Assembly (NCBI GenBank): GCA_964621195.1
Contig: CAZULJ010000002.1
Location: forward strand, 19,665-83,664
Reading direction: 5' to 3'
Length of the DNA stretch: 64,000 bases
DNA from: an uncultured Candidatus Saccharibacteria bacterium
Lineage (GTDB): Bacteria; Patescibacteriota; Dojkabacteria; SC72
The position numbers and the translations under genes are program-made. The notes beneath the pieces were generated by a model, which had not been told where the DNA came from, made no database searches, and saw only the letters and a list, made by a program, of their open reading frames with translations. Shown here one piece after another: positions 19,257 to 37,144 of this stretch (position 1 is the first letter of the stretch; each line of letters starts with the position of its first letter).

Positions 19257-19772
19257 ATGTATAAAAGGATTGGAATCAAAAAATTAGGAAGAACAACTGC
19301 ACATAGAAAGGCTTTGATCTTTAATCTATTAAGATCTCTTGTAGAGAGTGGTTCTGTTAAAACAACAACTGCAAAAGCAAAAGCTTTGAAGGGTCAAATG
19401 GAATCATTAATAGTGAAAGTTAAATCTTCTGGAAATGTAGACCTAAGTACAAGAAGAAGTTTACAAGATATTCTTGGTAACACAGCATTGGTACAGAAGT
19501 TTGTAGAAATTGCAAAAAAAGAATCAACAACAATAACTATAAAGAAAGTTGGTTTTAGAGCAGGTGATAACTCCGAGGTATCTTTGGTTGAGATAAAGGG
19601 GTTAGCTAAAAAGGAAGGAAAAAAAGAAGTCAAAGAGAAGAAGGAAGAAAAAGTAGTAGTTAAGAAGGAAAGTACAAAGAGAAAACCTATTGATGCAGGA
19701 AAAAAGAAATCAATAACAAAAGTTGTTGCTCCTGTAAATAAAGAAAGAGCAAAATCTAGATCTGGTTTATAA
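19257..19772 (+). CDS. rplQ: 50S ribosomal protein L17 with lysine-rich C-terminal extension
   Basis: LGRTTAHRKALI.NL...L...G.V.TT..KAK core (~115 aa) followed by a K/E-rich tail. Confidence 0.85.
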   Translation: MYKRIGIKKLGRTTAHRKALIFNLLRSLVESGSVKTTTAKAKALKGQMESLIVKVKSSGNVDLSTRRSLQDILGNTALVQKFVEIAKKESTTITIKKVGFRAGDNSEVSLVEIKGLAKKEGKKEVKEKKEEKVVVKKESTKRKPIDAGKKKSITKVVAPVNKERAKSRSGL

Positions 19773-30121: not shown

Positions 30122-32265
30122 TGAAAAATAGTGAATTAATAGTTATTAAAAATATTAATAAGAGTTTTCCTGTTGGTGATAGGATAAATACAGTATTAAA
30201 AGATATATCTTTTAATATTAACAAAGGAGAGTTAATTACAATATTCGGCCCTTCTGGATGTGGTAAGTCCACACTACTACATATAATAATGGGTATTGAA
30301 AGGCCAGAATCTGGTTGTATAAAAATCTTCGGTATTGACTTATGGAAGATGAATGCAGATGACAGATCTGATATGAGGAAAAGAAACATAGGTGTTGTAT
30401 ACCAACAACAGAATTGGATTAAATCTCTTAGTATAATAGAGAATCTGGCCTTAACCTCCCAGTTACTTGGTTTCAATAAAAAGGACTCTATAAAAAAAGC
30501 AGAAGAAAGTATCTTATTAGTAGGTCTTAATGGATATCGAGATAAATATCCCTCCGAGCTATCTTCCGGTGAACAACAAAAAGCAGGTCTTGCAAGGGCT
30601 ATTATATCTAATCCGCAGGTTATAATAGCCGATGAACCTACGGGAAATCTAGATACAAAGAGTGGATATGATGTTTTAAATATACTGCAAAAGCTTGTGA
30701 GCCAAGGTAAGACAGTTGTTTTGGTTACGCACAATCCAGAATATCTTGAACATTCTGATAGGGTTGTGATTATGAAAGATGGGAATATATTAGATATTGT
30801 AACTAAAACAGGAAACACAAGAGATATTGTTGAAAGAAAACTCTTAGAAGATACGCCAAAACATACTAATGGCAATGATAGTCCTAATATTAAAATAGTT
30901 GAAGAAAATGACTATCCTGAGAGAAGTATCTTTACAAGATTTCAGCAAAATATCTCACTAATAATAAAATTCTTCATAGAATCTACCATTGTATTTATAA
31001 ACATCCTATTACTAAAATTTAATAAAGGAGAGATCCTAGATAGGTATGTAGGTAGTAAAAACAAAAAATTCTCAAAAGAAATAGGAAGCATCTATCTAAC
31101 GGAACTCTCTCTCAAGAATCTCTTCTATAAAAAATTCAGAACAATAATTACAATACTAGGAGTAGGTTTAGGGACTGGATTTGTATTACTTTTGCTTTCA
31201 CTTGGGTATGGCTTGGAAAAGGTAATTCTTGATGAAATAACAGAAGTAAAGGATCTTAAACAATTAGAAGTATTTCCAAAAGTAGGAAGTCTACTAACCC
31301 TTGATCAAGAACTCATAGAGAAAATTAAAAATGTTCCAGGAGTAGAGAAAGTATATAAAGTTAAGAGTATACCTGGCAGAATAAACTATGAAGGCTCAAG
31401 TACTGATGTTGTTTTGTATGGTATTGAAAGTGGCTATTTAGAGGATAGCTCAACAAAAAAAATAGAAGGAGAATATATTATTAAAACTTCCGATAATATG
31501 GATATAATGCTTAATAATGAATACCTGAATGTTCTTGGTCTTAAAAAAGATGAAATTGTTGGTAAGAAAATTGAGCTAGAAGTTGTAAAAACTATACCCT
31601 CAGATGAAACAAAGCAAGAGCCCCTCTCTTTAAAGATTGTAGGAATAGTAGAAGATGATTCCCCCCCAGTGGCATATATGAAAATAGAAGAAGTTATAAA
31701 ATACTCTACACAGGATTACTCACAAGCAACAGTAATTATTAAGGATGATTCTGTAATAGATAATGTCAGAAGGCAAATAGAATCCCTTGGCCTAGAATCC
31801 TTCTCTATCATGGATACAATAACCCAAGTAGAAACACTATTTACATATGTAAGGTATGGATTACTTCTCTTTGGAATAATAGCATTTAGTGTTGCATTTT
31901 TAGGAATGGTAAACACTTTAGTAGTATCACTCCTAGAAAGAACTAGGGAAGTAGGCCTTATGAAAATAGTGGGTATGAAGAAAGATGAGATAATGACAAT
32001 CTTCATTACCGAATCTATGTTCATTGGCTTCCTTGGAGGATTAATAGGTATTGCAGCTGGTTATGTAGGAGGTCTTTTCGTCTCTCTACTTGTATATATA
32101 CTATCGATATCTCGAGGAGTTGATTTTGTTAATATTTCATACATACCTTGCTCTGTTGTTATTCTTGTTGTCGTATGTACTACACTTCTTGGATTCTTTA
32201 CGGGGTTGTATCCTGCTAAAAGAGCAGTAAAGATACCTCCTCTTAATGCTATGAGGTACGAATAA
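30121..32265 (+). CDS. fused ABC transporter ATP-binding protein / FtsX-like permease (MacB/LolCDE-like)
   Basis: Walker A GPSGCGKST, signature LSSGEQQK, Walker B VIIADEPTGNLD; C-terminal 4-TM FtsX-like permease with a large extracytoplasmic loop; start overlaps the upstream stop (TAATG). Confidence 0.8.
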   Translation: MKNSELIVIKNINKSFPVGDRINTVLKDISFNINKGELITIFGPSGCGKSTLLHIIMGIERPESGCIKIFGIDLWKMNADDRSDMRKRNIGVVYQQQNWIKSLSIIENLALTSQLLGFNKKDSIKKAEESILLVGLNGYRDKYPSELSSGEQQKAGLARAIISNPQVIIADEPTGNLDTKSGYDVLNILQKLVSQGKTVVLVTHNPEYLEHSDRVVIMKDGNILDIVTKTGNTRDIVERKLLEDTPKHTNGNDSPNIKIVEENDYPERSIFTRFQQNISLIIKFFIESTIVFINILLLKFNKGEILDRYVGSKNKKFSKEIGSIYLTELSLKNLFYKKFRTIITILGVGLGTGFVLLLLSLGYGLEKVILDEITEVKDLKQLEVFPKVGSLLTLDQELIEKIKNVPGVEKVYKVKSIPGRINYEGSSTDVVLYGIESGYLEDSSTKKIEGEYIIKTSDNMDIMLNNEYLNVLGLKKDEIVGKKIELEVVKTIPSDETKQEPLSLKIVGIVEDDSPPVAYMKIEEVIKYSTQDYSQATVIIKDDSVIDNVRRQIESLGLESFSIMDTITQVETLFTYVRYGLLLFGIIAFSVAFLGMVNTLVVSLLERTREVGLMKIVGMKKDEIMTIFITESMFIGFLGGLIGIAAGYVGGLFVSLLVYILSISRGVDFVNISYIPCSVVILVVVCTTLLGFFTGLYPAKRAVKIPPLNAMRYE

Positions 32266-32282
32266 ATTTTAAATAAATAGTT

Positions 32283-33137
32283 ATGAAATTAACAAGATTA
32301 GAAAAAATTTTAATAGTTTTAATAGTTGGTATATTAGCTAGTACCTTTGTAATAACTAAGGTTCTTGCAGAACAAAGTACTGGTACTCCAAACTCTGAAG
32401 TCAATTCTGTGATCAAGGATGTATACGAGAATCTAGTTAATTTAGAGTATGGATCCGAGACAGGATCTAATGGCCCTATGTGGAACAGAATAATATCTTC
32501 TAGCTTATGGGTACCAGAGGGTACTATTACAGAGGCAGATGTAGTAAATGGTAAAACATTTTTTAATAGTAGTAGAGTAGAAAAAACCGGTACTTTAGAT
32601 TTTCCAAAATACGAAGATATGTCTTTACAAGCAAAAGACTATAGAGATTCAAGTGCCTCTACTACTTGGAGCTCTTGGACCTTGACAAGTGGTGCTGCTA
32701 CAACAGGTGTATACAAAGATAATAGGACGGGGTTATATTGGAGTGCAATGCTGGGTTCTGCAAATTCATTTACAAACGAATTTACAATAGCATCGTGCCC
32801 CTTTTTTACAACGGTACCTAGGGGTGATTATAACGGTGGTAATGTAAATTGTGGTAATGCTATAAATACCTGTGCAACTCTATCCCTTGATTTAAATGGT
32901 GACTCAACTCCAGAAACTAAATGGTACTTACCAACACAAGCAGAACTTATGCAGGCATATTTAAATGGTATAAACTTATCTACCAATACTACATGGGTAA
33001 CAGGGAATAATTTTTGGTCCAGTACCGAGAATCAGTCTACTAATACGTACGCATGGAACGCCTACCTTAACGGTGGCTATACCGCTATCAATAATAAGAT
33101 TACAAGTTATTCAGTTCGTTGTGTCCACAGGGATTGA
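32283..33137 (+). CDS. DGR target (variable) protein: pilin-like N-terminal hydrophobic segment plus C-terminal DUF1566 (Lcl-C / C-type-lectin-fold) domain carrying the VR
   Basis: N-terminus MKLTRLEKILIVLIVGILAS. C-terminus WYLPTQAELMQAYLNG....FWSST..........AWNAYLNGGY.....K.....VRCVHRD matches the DUF1566 pattern (W.LPT..EL..L...YWSS........aw.v.f..G........VRCVR). The last 41 codons are duplicated downstream as the TR. Confidence 0.8.
   Translation: MKLTRLEKILIVLIVGILASTFVITKVLAEQSTGTPNSEVNSVIKDVYENLVNLEYGSETGSNGPMWNRIISSSLWVPEGTITEADVVNGKTFFNSSRVEKTGTLDFPKYEDMSLQAKDYRDSSASTTWSSWTLTSGAATTGVYKDNRTGLYWSAMLGSANSFTNEFTIASCPFFTTVPRGDYNGGNVNCGNAINTCATLSLDLNGDSTPETKWYLPTQAELMQAYLNGINLSTNTTWVTGNNFWSSTENQSTNTYAWNAYLNGGYTAINNKITSYSVRCVHRD
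33012..33133 (+). repeat. DGR variable repeat (VR), 122 bp, at the 3' end of the target CDS
   Basis: 108/122 identity to 33511..33632 with no indels; all 14 mismatches occur at TR adenines. Confidence 0.85.
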
Positions 33138-33510
33138 TAGGAGGGTTCTAGTATAAGTATATAGGGTTGTCCGCCCTGTCTGTAATTGATATCCCATTAA
33201 ACTTGTTTTGCTGAACCCGATTAGCCTAGCAGTGAAAATGTAGAACACAGTCTTAAATCTATAGGTCTCTAGGTCGCTGAACTCTTGGAGAGTATAATAT
33301 CTGCTAGGCAATTTAAATATTGAAATGTCTATTTTGATATGTGATTATGACTTATGCAGGATCTTACATTCTCAACCTTGTTTTAGGCTCTGGTTTGTAA
33401 GGGGGGCGTAATATATAATCCTACTTGCTATACCCATTGGGTACTAAGATTCAAAAAGTCTTTTTATAAAATCAGACTTTTGGTGAGTAATATAAATTAG
33501 CAAGTTTCCG

Positions 33511-33632
33511 TTTTGGTCCAGTACCGAGAATCAGAATAATAATACGAACGCATGGAACACAAACCTTAACAATGGAAATACCAATAACAATAATAAGATT
33601 ACAAGTTATTCAGTTCGTTGTGTCCACAGGGA
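33511..33632 (+). repeat. DGR template repeat (TR), 122 bp, Asn-codon (AAY)-rich
   Basis: Non-coding copy of the VR. In target frame it reads FWSSTENQNNNTNAWNTNLNNGNTNNNNKITSYSVRCVHR; VR differs only where the TR has A. Confidence 0.85.
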
Positions 33633-33641
33633 GAATATATT

Positions 33642-33992
33642 ATGCCTCATGCAAGTAATACTTTATATTTAACACTATATAAATTTATACAGTATTTGTA
33701 TTGTGTTGTTCGCAATTTCCCCAAAGAGTACAAATATACACTTGGTGCAGATATTTTAAATCTCTCTTGGAAATCTCTTGATTATATTATTGTCGCTAAT
33801 TCGGTTAGTAACAAGGAGAAGAAAAAATATCTTGAAAAGGCAGTAGCTGTGTTTCTTAGTCTTAAATATAGATTAAGGCTCTCTAGTGATTTAAAACTGT
33901 TTAACAATAAGAGGTATGCGTATGTTCTAGAAAACTATCTTGAAATAGAAAAAATATTAAACGGTTGGCTTGCTTGGTCTAAAAGACAGTAG
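33642..33992 (+). CDS. avd: DGR accessory variability determinant (Avd; four-helix-bundle / 23S-rRNA-IVS protein family)
   Basis: ~116 aa; FPKEYKYTLGADILNLSWKSL..I..ANS......K.YLEKA......L.Y.LRLS.DLK resembles Avd / S23 ribosomal-IVS proteins (FPKeEkygLtsQi.Raa.Si.sNIaEG); start taken at the MPHASN ATG just after the TR. Confidence 0.7.
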   Translation: MPHASNTLYLTLYKFIQYLYCVVRNFPKEYKYTLGADILNLSWKSLDYIIVANSVSNKEKKKYLEKAVAVFLSLKYRLRLSSDLKLFNNKRYAYVLENYLEIEKILNGWLAWSKRQ

Positions 33993-35162
33993 ATTATTCT
34001 GAGGTTCGATATATTCTTTCAGTTTACCAAAGTGTTTGTTGTAGAGGTTGTTTCTTAGTAGGTAAGAATTACTCCATTTCAAGTGTCCAAATGTAGAATT
34101 AATGCTTGTACAAAGAGCCTTAATATCTTTTTGAGTGATATTTTCCCCTAGAGGTATTCTTTCTTCCATACAGAGCTTTCTGTTTATTAGGTATCCTTTG
34201 TTAAAGTAGTATAGCTTTCTTTCTAAATTTGCTAAAACCCTGTTTCTACACAGTGTGAATCTTGGTTTAACTATGTATCCCACAAAGTCTATTCCTTGGT
34301 ATACACTTCCATATTTTGTTTTGTTGCTCTTGATTTTTAATCTAAGCCTTTTTTGTAGGAATAACTCTACCTTTCTTTTGATAATTTCTAAGGTATCTAT
34401 ATCTTCTGAGAGAAATAGCATATCGTCGGCGTATCTCAGATAGTATTTTACCTCTAGTTTCCTTTTAATATATTGATCTACTTCATTTAGATATAGATTT
34501 GCGAAGAATTGCGAGGTTAAGTTACCAATCGCAAGTCCTTTACCTTTCGGTATTGTGAACAGGCTTTTATTCTTTGGAAGGCTACCTATTATTTTGAAAC
34601 TGCCTTTCTTTTTATAATTACTACATGGGTCATGGAATATAATTTTTGAGATTAGCCATATCAAATCTGCCTTGTCTTTTTTGTTGAAATTAAGGCGGTT
34701 TATTTCCTTTTTGAGAATTCTATAAAGTATTTCCTTGTCTATTGAATAAAAAAAGCTCTCAATATCGAGTTTAAGATAGTACGCCTGTTTGGTATTGTTA
34801 TGAGTAATTTTTTTTATAAACCGTTTCAATCTCCTTATGCCCAGGAGAGCTCCTTTGTTTTTTCTACAAGCAAGAGAGTCGTATATAAATTTTTTGTCAA
34901 TAGGTCTTTCAATATGATTAATAAGCAGGTGGTGTACAATCCTGTCTCTAAAACTTGCCGCAAAGATCTCTCTTGTAGTGGGATAGGTAATTACAAAGCA
35001 CTGAGACTTACCTATTGTATACCTTCTGTTAAGAAGTTCTTCATGGAGAATGTAAAGATTGTTTTCAAGAGATTCTTCAAACTCAGAAGCATATTTGCAA
35101 TTTCTTTTTCCTTTTCTGCATGCAGAGTATGCTTGAAGAAGTGATGATAGTTCAAAAACCAT
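33957..35162 (-). CDS. DGR-type reverse transcriptase
   Basis: RT domains with YADDMLF (motif 5) and IGNLTSQFFANLYLN (motif 4 with SQ, as in DGR RTs, instead of the QG of group II intron/retron RTs). 401 aa. Adjacent to TR and avd but on the opposite strand, overlapping the avd 3' end by 36 bp. Confidence 0.8.
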   Translation of the reverse strand: MVFELSSLLQAYSACRKGKRNCKYASEFEESLENNLYILHEELLNRRYTIGKSQCFVITYPTTREIFAASFRDRIVHHLLINHIERPIDKKFIYDSLACRKNKGALLGIRRLKRFIKKITHNNTKQAYYLKLDIESFFYSIDKEILYRILKKEINRLNFNKKDKADLIWLISKIIFHDPCSNYKKKGSFKIIGSLPKNKSLFTIPKGKGLAIGNLTSQFFANLYLNEVDQYIKRKLEVKYYLRYADDMLFLSEDIDTLEIIKRKVELFLQKRLRLKIKSNKTKYGSVYQGIDFVGYIVKPRFTLCRNRVLANLERKLYYFNKGYLINRKLCMEERIPLGENITQKDIKALCTSINSTFGHLKWSNSYLLRNNLYNKHFGKLKEYIEPQNNLLSFRPSKPTV

Positions 35163-35623
35163 ATCGCGATATATTATATAAATGGTATAGAGTAAGTATC
35201 TTGGGCCTAATAATACTTGGGAACCTATGCAAAATTATAGTGAATCTGCAATTCTTAACTATGAAGATCTTAACAGTTCAAGATTGTTACATCTGATATG
35301 AAGAGTTTTTAAAAGACATACAGATATATTACAGGAAAAAGTTGAAATAAACTCTTCCCGATTGTTGTTAACTATGTTGATTTGTATATTAGGGGCAATA
35401 GCTAGAAAGTAAGCTCTAAAAATGATATCATTACAAAGTCCTTGATAACCATGTTTTGTGGTTGGTAAAGAAATATTAAAGAATAATTGATTAATGAACA
35501 TTTTGAAAAATATATATACTAAAAAATATATACTACAAGAACTCTTTGATGTAGGAGATCGTAATTAGATCTTCCTATTTTTCTTCACCAAAAAAGGATG
35601 AATAAATTTTTAACAATACTCTT

Positions 35624-37144
35624 ATGGAGTTAATTATTGGTATTGTTGCAACACTCGTCGGAGGTATTTCTGTGTTTTCCTACCTCAAGTATGTACAGAA
35701 GTGGGTAAATATTAAGGATATTCCCGAGGAAGAAGTAGAGAGAGTTGCAAACAAGATAATCGGTAACAAGATAGCACAAACCGAGAAAGAATTAGAAGAA
35801 AACAAAAGAAGGGCAGAAGATAGACTCCGCGAACTTCGAAAAGAAACTCAGGAGCATGAGGAACTTCTTCTTGATAGGGAGAAGAAATTAAATGAGAGAA
35901 CTAAGATGCTCGATCAAAAAAGTGAAGAACTCGAGAGTGCTTCTGAGAATGTAAAGAAAATGCAAAGAGGTCTTGAAAATACAAGGAATCAATTGAAAGA
36001 AGAATTGGAAAGGATTTCAGGATTAACTCAGGATGAAGCAAGACAGAAACTTATGAGTCAGGTTGATGAGGATATCAAAAACTATGAAGCTAAGAAAATT
36101 AGGCAGGCAGAGAAAAGAGTAGAAGAAGTAGCAGAGGAGAAGGCAAGGCATATTCTTGTTGAATCTATGCAAAGAATTGCAACTGACTATGTAGGTGAAA
36201 CTACTACGTCTTCTATTAAAATTGAAGATGATAAAGTAAAGGGTAGAGTTATTGGTAAAGAGGGTAGAAATATCAGGGCATTTGAAAAGCTTACCGGTGT
36301 TGACGTTATTGTCGATGAATCTCCAAATACAATAGCTCTTTCATCTTTTGATCCTTTGAGAAGAGAGATTGCTTCTGTTGCACTTACCAAATTGATTGGT
36401 GATGGAAGAATTCATCCAGGATCTATCGAAGAGGCTATTAGAAAGGCAAAGAATGAGATTTCAATTGAAATAAAAAAGAATGGTCAAATTCTTGCAGAAG
36501 AAGCTGATTGGCCAGGTATAGATATCGGATTGTTAAAGCTTATTGGTAAGATGAAATATAGAACTAGTTATGGGCAGTCCTTAATGTCTCACACTATCGA
36601 AATGATGAGAATGGGAGAAGTTCTAGCTGCAGAAGTTGGAGCTGATGTAGGTCTTGTTAAAAAGGCATGTCTATTACATGATGTTGGTAAGGTATTAACT
36701 CATAAGATTGAGAGTCCTCATCATCATATTTCTGGTCAGGTTGCTCGTAAATATGGTTTAGATGAGAAATTGGTGAATGCAATTGAAGCTCATCACTTGG
36801 ATATTGAACCACAATCTGTTGAAGCTGTATTGGTATATATTGCGGATGCAATCTCTGGTGCAAGACCAGGTGCAAGAAAAGATAGCTATGAACAGTATAT
36901 TCAAAGGATTGAATCTTTAGAGAATGTTGCAAAGGAATTGGCTGGAGATAAGATTGAAGAGGTGTTTGCTATTAAGGCTGGTAGAGAATTAAGAATAATT
37001 GTTAAACCTGCTTTGATATCTGACGATGAAATGACTGTACTTGCAAAGGATATCGCGTCTAGTATTGAGAAGACTCAGAATTATCCTGGTAATGTAGAAG
37101 TTACATTAATCAGAGAAACTAGAGCTATTGAGGTCGCAAGATAG
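35624..37144 (+). CDS. rny: ribonuclease Y
   Basis: N-terminal TM, coiled coil, KH domain (GRVIGKEGRNIRAFE..TGVD), HD domain (HSIEVA-like ...LLHDVGK...HH). Confidence 0.85.
   Translation: MELIIGIVATLVGGISVFSYLKYVQKWVNIKDIPEEEVERVANKIIGNKIAQTEKELEENKRRAEDRLRELRKETQEHEELLLDREKKLNERTKMLDQKSEELESASENVKKMQRGLENTRNQLKEELERISGLTQDEARQKLMSQVDEDIKNYEAKKIRQAEKRVEEVAEEKARHILVESMQRIATDYVGETTTSSIKIEDDKVKGRVIGKEGRNIRAFEKLTGVDVIVDESPNTIALSSFDPLRREIASVALTKLIGDGRIHPGSIEEAIRKAKNEISIEIKKNGQILAEEADWPGIDIGLLKLIGKMKYRTSYGQSLMSHTIEMMRMGEVLAAEVGADVGLVKKACLLHDVGKVLTHKIESPHHHISGQVARKYGLDEKLVNAIEAHHLDIEPQSVEAVLVYIADAISGARPGARKDSYEQYIQRIESLENVAKELAGDKIEEVFAIKAGRELRIIVKPALISDDEMTVLAKDIASSIEKTQNYPGNVEVTLIRETRAIEVAR

Follow-up and report, generated by a model that had tools for sequence, protein, structure and literature searches.

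The prototypical diversity-generating retroelement (DGR), that of Bordetella phage BPP-1 (mtd-avd-TR-brt), comprises a target gene, an accessory variability determinant (avd), a repeat that serves as template (TR) and the gene of a reverse transcriptase (RT), all co-directional; its avd borders directly on the TR (gap 0), and brt is separated from the TR by a spacer (Sp) of 144 nt. The BPP-1 Avd is a four-helix-bundle protein and the BPP-1 target has a lectin fold. The Sp contains priming and protein-binding RNA elements, and forms a primer:template duplex, a 'cPRT Stop' duplex with the stretch immediately upstream of the TR, and stem-loops to which Avd and bRT bind (bioRxiv 10.1101/2023.10.23.563531). 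The Bordetella DGR has been reconstituted in E. coli (PMC12875486). We describe here a DGR in which the RT gene is turned against the TR and avd, found in a 64-kb window (positions 19,665 to 83,664 of contig CAZULJ010000002.1, a contig of about 158 kb in assembly GCA_964621195.1). The locus is a complete, chromosomal DGR in a Dojkabacteria-like bacterium of the candidate phyla radiation (CPR). We consider it likely that it is functional and made of two convergent transcription units, its RT and Avd acting in trans on a separate leader-TR RNA, and that the inversion is tolerated because this template RNA has a promoter and a folded leader to itself.

DGRs of this polarity have been described before. 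Schillinger et al. (2012, PMC3521204) defined 'inverted' DGRs by an RT whose strand is opposite to that of the TR, variable repeat (VR) and target, and stated that RT mRNA and template RNA need not share one transcript. Wu et al. (2017, PMC5758913) counted 48 layouts, found that TR and RT can occupy different strands and gave architecture B3, TR-(avd)-RT, as the main CPR type. In the classification of Yan et al. (2019, PMC6642488), G5, an RT-inverted cassette derived in layout from the prototype, is among the next most abundant patterns, the prototype G1 being more than 20 times as frequent. Components on different strands are handled explicitly by MyDGR (PMC6602519) and are also recorded in a 2024 survey of metagenome-assembled genomes (MAGs). 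Finally, the TR of Trichodesmium erythraeum has its own mapped transcription start and gives rise to a discrete, abundant 265-nt non-coding RNA apart from the RT mRNA (PMC4143802). A first-pass annotation of the window had called its architecture non-standard and worth documenting. This stands relative to BPP-1 but not for the layout as a class, inverted DGRs having been known since 2012; the comparison with architecture catalogues that the annotation recommended finds RT-inverted cassettes already recorded, so the layout is not undocumented.

The components of the locus, with the basis of each assignment, are the following.

32283..33137, plus strand: DGR target gene, 284 aa, with an N-terminal hydrophobic anchor and a C-terminal Lcl_C/DUF1566 domain that includes the VR (open reading frame (ORF), Pfam PF07603)
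33012..33133, plus strand: VR, 122 nt (last 41 codons of the target gene)
33511..33632, plus strand: TR, 122 nt (repeat match to the VR)
33642..33992, plus strand: avd, accessory variability determinant, 116 aa, beginning 10 nt past the TR (Pfam bAvd)
33957..35162, minus strand: DGR reverse transcriptase, 401 aa (ORF, Pfam RVT_1, motifs)
34509..34529, minus strand: RT motif IGNLTSQ, a motif 4 ending in SQ, as in the DGR pattern I/L/V-G-x-x-x-S-Q (read from the sequence)
34422..34433, minus strand: RT motif YADD, the YxDD catalytic box (read from the sequence)
33957..33992, both strands: stretch in which the coding 3' ends of avd and RT overlap convergently, 36 bp (the avd stop ends at 33992, the RT stop lies at 33957)

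Target, VR, TR and avd are on the plus strand and the RT is on the minus strand. The first-pass annotation had placed the RT and the 36-bp overlap at these positions and had named the two motifs, all of which we could confirm, and its assignment of TR and avd to the plus strand is borne out by the ORFs, the repeat pair and the Pfam bAvd match.

The target protein matches Lcl_C/DUF1566 (Pfam PF07603, 6e-13), a domain with a lectin-type fold. TR and VR differ by 14 mismatches, every one of them at a TR adenine (14/14); 12 of them fall on the first or second position of a codon. Their final 45 nt are identical and they diverge directly past GGGA, a stretch in which the IMH/IMH*, the 3' limit of mutagenesis, may lie. 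The gap from target gene to TR measures 373 nt. A GC-rich hairpin or inverted repeat was looked for past the VR and none was found; such a hairpin follows the VR in just 34% of DGRs (Wu et al. 2017, PMC5758913). The avd product scores 65 bits against Pfam bAvd PF22296 (1e-17, cutoff 40) and 66 bits against NCBIfam DivGenRetAVD (2.6e-18), the latter under that model's curated cutoff of 80 bits, and orthologues, also of 116 aa, were called in independent assemblies. The RT matches Pfam RVT_1 (1.1e-19). Of the solved structures, chain 8ub7_A (328 aa, 'Reverse transcriptase', E 6e-32) is the one that it matches best. We take this chain to be the Bordetella phage bRT; in the alignment IGNLTSQFFAN stands opposite IGSLTSQLFAN and YADD opposite YMDD. 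Of the NCBIfam models for retrons, group II introns and DRTs, none matched the RT at cutoff. The RT has more than 3600 homologues, the nearest in Dojkabacteria/WS6. A profile search of all window ORFs and a search for TR copies, both confined to the window, found a single RT, avd, TR and VR.

The inverted layout is conserved. Exact-protein look-ups for the three RT homologues nearest to that of the window (87, 82 and 68% identical) led to orthologue contigs from four independent assemblies (Logan DRR438537, JGI 3300010223, JGI 3300040971 and ENA ERZ27315057), each with the gene order of the window and with the 36-bp overlap. Synteny in the three longer contigs covers a giant fn3 protein, a MacB-type ABC transporter, the Lcl_C target, avd, the reversed RT, RNase Y and HU; the fourth contig (L082) ends shortly after the RT. 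We then compared 165 loci (the window, its four orthologues, 80 loci from genomes and 80 from metagenomes), the metagenome loci being, among the matches listed, mostly distant relatives. RT, avd and TR/VR were annotated in each, with the strand assigned by the A or T bias of the mismatches. The layouts were distributed as follows.

RT> <avd <TR <VR, the layout of the window: 11 of the 165 loci
RT> <TR <avd <VR: 11 of the 165 loci
RT> avd> <TR <VR: 4 of the 165 loci
VR> TR> avd> RT>: 6 of the 165 loci
VR> avd> TR> RT>, the prototypical layout, together with multi-VR variants: the majority of the 165 loci

Within the genome collection, the window layout is shared by L001, L002, L003, L005, L031, L035 and L085, whose titles name Dojkabacteria, Woesebacteria or other groups. 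Layouts form contiguous blocks when the RTs are arranged on an approximate neighbour-joining tree; that of the window takes in every RT relative between 100% and about 50% identity, the locus titles here being Dojkabacteria, Woesebacteria or 'Saccharibacteria'. The inverted-RT layout is the rule within this RT's clade and not an oddity.

Several features of individual loci deserve mention. The plus-strand segment 27035..33137 of the window, with counterparts in L081, L083 and L084, encodes a 1028-aa fn3-repeat surface protein, the MacB-type ABC transporter (ABC_tran + MacB_PCD + FtsX) and the DGR target, in conserved synteny. The diversified protein, with its N-terminal hydrophobic anchor, may be part of a surface or export module. 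At L110:2006-2845 and in L086 (the same element), a second DGR-type RT is found about 1 kb past the VR of an RT> avd> <TR <VR cassette, and two RTs thus flank a single TR/VR. At L031:6084-6956, in a Patescibacteria MAG, the RT ORF looks truncated or frameshifted next to a retained avd, leader, TR and adenine-variant VR, which could reflect either decay of the cassette or a fault in the assembly.

The variable repeat bears the marks of diversification. We examined eight target proteins, the 90%-identity cluster of the target itself. Over residues 1-249 the mean column entropy of these proteins (at least 90% identical) is 0.07 bit, with 26/249 columns variable, against 1.29 bit and 21/27 variable columns over VR residues 250-276, and the variable columns correspond to the TR codons AAT, AAC, ACA and ACG. 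In the four orthologues the TRs are nearly identical, and each VR has its own changes at TR-adenine positions. From these sequence patterns, the DGR appears to work or to have worked recently. Two VR residues, Q251 (33033..33035, TR codon CAG) and S275 (33105..33107, TR codon AGT), are invariant in all eight targets despite their TR adenines, which likely results from selection on structural residues inside the VR. In the 82%-identical orthologue L082 (VR region 2562-2625), the TR/VR match stops after 64 nt; this VR is without an 18-nt (6-codon) block of the alignment and the target has 275 aa, compared with 284 in the window.

Upstream of the TR, the plus strand carries a conserved RNA structure that directly abuts it.

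33356..33510, plus strand: conserved 5' leader RNA of the TR, 155 nt, with helices P1-P4 (covariation, covariance models)

RNAalifold analysis of ten leader sequences gave 37 pairs, 22 of them with compensatory changes. In a MAFFT alignment of 14 leader-TR-flank sequences, 86.9% of the cells were paired, compared with 37-50% in slid controls, and 31 of the 50 pairs showed two-sided changes. For 28 model-aligned sequences the figures were 92.6% and 36-46%, in an alignment that is biased towards the model structure. The leader folded alone has a weak z-score (-1.65) and the 300-nt RNA one of -3.0, so that the structure is backed by covariation and by the 300-nt fold, not by the fold of the leader by itself. 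Leader covariance models (R1 and a second-round model, R2) matched 58 of the 165 loci, for example L081:7655-7808(-), L017:1070-1244(+) and L016:1388-1568(+). The match is on the TR strand in 45/45 loci with an independently mapped TR, and ends at most 12 nt from the TR 5' boundary in 38 of these 45. The 45 loci cover ten layout classes, including canonical cassettes in loci titled Nitrospirae, Desulfobacteraceae and Proteobacteria. The constant unit of these elements therefore appears to be the leader, the TR and a short flank, with avd and RT moving around it. A scan of 32000..36000 against Rfam, with E up to 1, returned only one chance-level miRNA match and no known RNA family; the leader model did not match the BPP-1 cassette, and we found no mention of a large structured domain 5' of the TR in the DGR literature covered.

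A long-range duplex connects this leader with the other end of the TR and with the start of avd.

33403..33422, plus strand: leader strand J (GGGGCGTAATATATAATCCT), the 5' partner of the duplex, between P1 and P2 (RNAduplex; inverted repeat I12)
33629..33648, plus strand: strand J', the 3' partner, made of the last 4 nt of the TR and 16 nt downstream (RNAduplex, covariation)
33629..33633, plus strand: Shine-Dalgarno sequence GGGAG of avd (inside J')
33642..33644, plus strand: start codon ATG of avd (inside J')

J and J' form an 18-bp duplex in both the minimum free energy and the centroid folds of the 300-nt RNA. In the MAFFT alignment of 14 sequences, compensatory changes affect 8 of its 18 pairs: GGGGCGTAAT/ATTATGCCTC in the window is replaced by AAAGCCCAAA/TTTGGGCTTT in L007, and CAT/ATG by CAC/GTG in L031, the start codon of which is GTG. 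When the best partner of J was sought within 420 nt downstream, it fell at +108 to +147 in 21/28 loci, an interval that corresponds to the TR 3' end for TRs of about 120-165 nt, as judged by TR size and not by ends mapped locus by locus. Since J' includes both the Shine-Dalgarno sequence and the ATG of avd, the folded template RNA and avd translation should exclude each other; the model suggests that a transcript may be used as template RNA or be translated as avd mRNA, though not both simultaneously. We also considered a J-like copy past the avd stop (34000..34017, plus strand) as a partner of J'. It can pair in the window, L081 and L082, and this pairing is lost in L083, L002, L085 and L003; the copy is probably a lineage-specific coincidence.

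Because RT and TR are on opposite strands, TR RNA and RT mRNA need separate promoters, as the first-pass annotation had pointed out. The candidate regions are the following.

33320..33348, plus strand: sigma70-like candidate promoter for leader-TR-avd, TTGAAA, a 17-nt spacer and GATTAT preceded by TG (consensus scan)
35163..35623, no strand assigned: intergenic stretch separating the divergent RT and RNase Y genes, where the RT promoter presumably lies (position)

The sigma70-like site ahead of the leader lies 8 nt upstream of an invariant GC at which sequence conservation starts. In an alignment the same -35/-10 spacing recurs 7-9 nt ahead of this GC in L081, L082, L083, L001, L002, L085, L031, L007 and L086, and the geometry is kept in relatives down to about 47% RT identity. 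This would make the site a promoter with transcription starting near 33356. On the RT side, a TATAAT (35173..35178, minus strand) lies 10 nt from the RT ATG. It is common to the closest relatives only, which are also the only ones among which the 200 nt upstream of the RT can be aligned, and the promoter scan does not report it; as an RT promoter element, this hexamer is at most suggestive.

Taken together, these elements can be arranged into two units. The first, on the plus strand, would start near 33356 from the promoter at about 33320..33348 and would comprise the 155-nt leader, the 122-nt TR and avd; the second, on the minus strand, would consist of the RT gene, transcribed out of the RT/RNase Y intergenic region. 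The RT and Avd proteins would act in trans on the leader-TR RNA, the TR would be copied with adenine-specific errors, and the cDNA would replace the VR, which forms the 3' end of the gene for the Lcl_C-domain surface protein, 370 nt upstream. In cis, the RNA would depend on the leader and about 20 nt past the TR, J pairing with the TR 3' end and its flank and so closing the TR into a loop. As nothing further downstream is seemingly required, avd and RT would be free to sit on either side of this module and on either strand, and with a cis module limited to leader, TR and flank an inverted RT would be tolerated and stably inherited. The components, the adenine-specific differences, the conserved layout, the VR hypervariability and the covarying RNA structure with its fixed place 5' of the TR are observed; promoter activity and transcription start, the work of RT and Avd in trans, what the leader does and whatever the 36-nt antisense overlap may cause are inferred.

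Some observations weigh against such a scheme. The VR diversity among relatives reflects past activity of the lineage and not of this genome, and a second RT might lie beyond the 64 kb of the approximately 158-kb contig. The promoter is a consensus match, in a region where promoter-like sites are not more numerous than expected from shuffled sequence. Covariance-model alignments favour the structure of their model, and the more independent, MAFFT-only test comprises 14 related sequences. Finally, the priming RNA of BPP-1 sits 3' of the TR, whereas the structured RNA of the window is 5', and an Sp-equivalent element might be hidden in the avd coding sequence.

Other explanations of the inverted RT can be set against the same data. 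The first-pass annotation had itself named a mis-assembled inversion, with breakpoints near 33950 and 35200, as what would undo its claim. A mis-joined or flipped segment of this kind, in favour of which nothing was found, is very improbable: order and 36-bp overlap are identical in four independent assemblies and the order persists in more distant MAGs, the junction falls inside two intact overlapping ORFs, and the RT gene is not bracketed by strong inverted repeats. An invertible RT segment, switching by phase variation between a co-directional and an inverted state, has nothing but the unusual orientation in its favour and a practically negligible chance of being right, for the inverted repeats found are all AT-rich, 71-88% complementary and none brackets the RT gene, re-inversion would destroy the overlapping avd 3' end, and every independent assembly has one and the same orientation. 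The cassette might also be a relic, its RT uncoupled from the TR by the inversion, or be served by another RT. Only 64 kb of the genome are in view, L031 retains avd, leader, TR and VR next to a seemingly truncated RT ORF, and L086/L110 has a second RT gene close by. We nevertheless hold this improbable, because an intact RT, avd, TR and leader are kept together over RT identities of 60-100%, all 14 TR/VR differences are at adenines, and the VR is hypervariable in near-identical targets (members of the 90% cluster, chosen irrespective of cassette layout). No second RT, avd or TR was found in the window; the co-directional partner RT that the annotation had envisaged is thus absent from these 64 kb, which hold one RT only.

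The convergent overlap itself could be a regulatory device, complementary 3' ends or polymerase collision coupling or limiting both units and in this way tuning mutagenesis. As first proposed for the window, transcripts of the two units can be antisense to each other: a complete avd mRNA would complement the last 36 nt of the RT coding sequence. A terminator scan found no terminator-like site between avd and RT on either strand, and none for either unit, so that overlapping transcripts are expected. The overlap is exactly 36 bp in nine loci, among them L081-L085, L002 and L003, down to about 60% RT identity, and amounts to 39 bp in L001; larger overlaps, of 97 bp in L005 and of 110 bp in L035, would also fit such a device. 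We nonetheless regard this reading as unlikely. Overlapping coding sequences are held by a double coding constraint, to which alone the conservation could be due and which makes it no proof of function; CPR genomes are compact; and sister clades use RT> avd> <TR, RT> <TR <avd or co-directional TR-avd-RT, from which it follows that the overlap is not required for this DGR lineage. In the sister clade with RT> <TR <avd <VR (L009, L013, L014, L092, L095, L096, L098 and L104), the TR 3' end is 3-52 nt from the opposite-strand RT stop, so that RNA running past the TR would be antisense to the RT 3' coding end there; in L105 this distance is 330 nt. Model R2 places the leader between avd and TR in L013, L092, L096, L098 and L104.

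Two convergent units with a template RNA of its own are thus the reading that we retain, and the locus speaks for DGR RT and Avd working in trans on a template RNA that is transcribed separately. The plasticity of DGR layouts thereby gets a testable reason, namely what appears to be a compact, autonomous cis RNA module made of promoter, leader, TR and about 20 nt of 3' flank. The RT lineage that bears the leader is widespread (58/165 surveyed loci, ten layouts, non-CPR phyla included). We further suggest, tentatively and as less likely than not, that the leader is a permuted counterpart of the BPP-1 Sp, which would bind RT-Avd, position the TR 3' end and possibly prime in cis, the duplex hiding the avd start and the self-contained module freeing RT and avd. 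If so, at least two DGR RNA topologies would exist, with a bearing on priming; the leader would be relevant to the engineering of DGRs as programmable mutagenesis tools, and annotation pipelines could orient and delimit TRs by a leader model.

Compared with BPP-1, the locus has the same kinds of components: an RT with the ...SQ signature of motif 4, an Avd, an adenine-specific TR/VR pair and a VR at the 3' end of the target. It differs in the order VR-TR-avd and in having the RT on the other strand, where all BPP-1 components are co-directional, and also in the organisation of its RNA, the conserved covarying structure being 5' of the TR and not 3'. Beyond about 20 nt, the 3' flank of the window's TR is avd sense sequence, and it differs in sister clades. 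In 62 canonical-order relatives the non-coding space is upstream of the TR, with median gaps of 200 nt from avd to TR and 17 nt from TR to RT, against 0 and 144 nt in BPP-1; this reversed gap pattern suggests that DGR RNA has two topologies. For 207 DGRs, CPR ones included, Handa et al. predicted duplexes in which a sequence upstream of the TR pairs with one downstream of it (bioRxiv 10.1101/2023.10.23.563531); J:J' may be an instance of these. In outline J:J' resembles the 'cPRT Stop' of BPP-1, but there the upstream strand is immediately 5' of the TR and its partner within Sp, whereas in the window about 90 nt separate the upstream strand from the TR, and the partner takes in the TR terminus.

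The TR RNA of Trichodesmium, with its own start, is a precedent that makes a separately transcribed template plausible in the window. That DGR differs in being cyanobacterial, in having its TR downstream of the RT without a convergent overlap, and in its many remote targets. With architecture B3 of Wu et al. (2017) the window shares the order TR, avd, RT and the presence of components on different strands; by its written notation, however, B3 has a reversed avd and a co-directional TR and RT, whereas in the window avd goes with the TR and it is the RT that is reversed. We therefore did not assign the window to B3, and the layout TR> <avd RT> occurred in none of the 165 surveyed loci. The RT opposite to TR, VR and target is instead what characterises the inverted DGRs of Schillinger et al. 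(2012, Group 4) and Yan et al. (2019, G5), to which the window belongs. The Group 4 DGRs (Shewanella, Vibrio and Photobacterium; PMC3521204) are gammaproteobacterial and were presented as the outcome of a single rare inversion event, whereas the clade of the window consists of CPR bacteria and has avd between TR and RT, overlapping the RT 3' end. The inverted RT layout is thus not new as a class, and the locus adds one member to a class known since 2012: another well-documented, clade-wide and evidently functional example of inverted DGRs.

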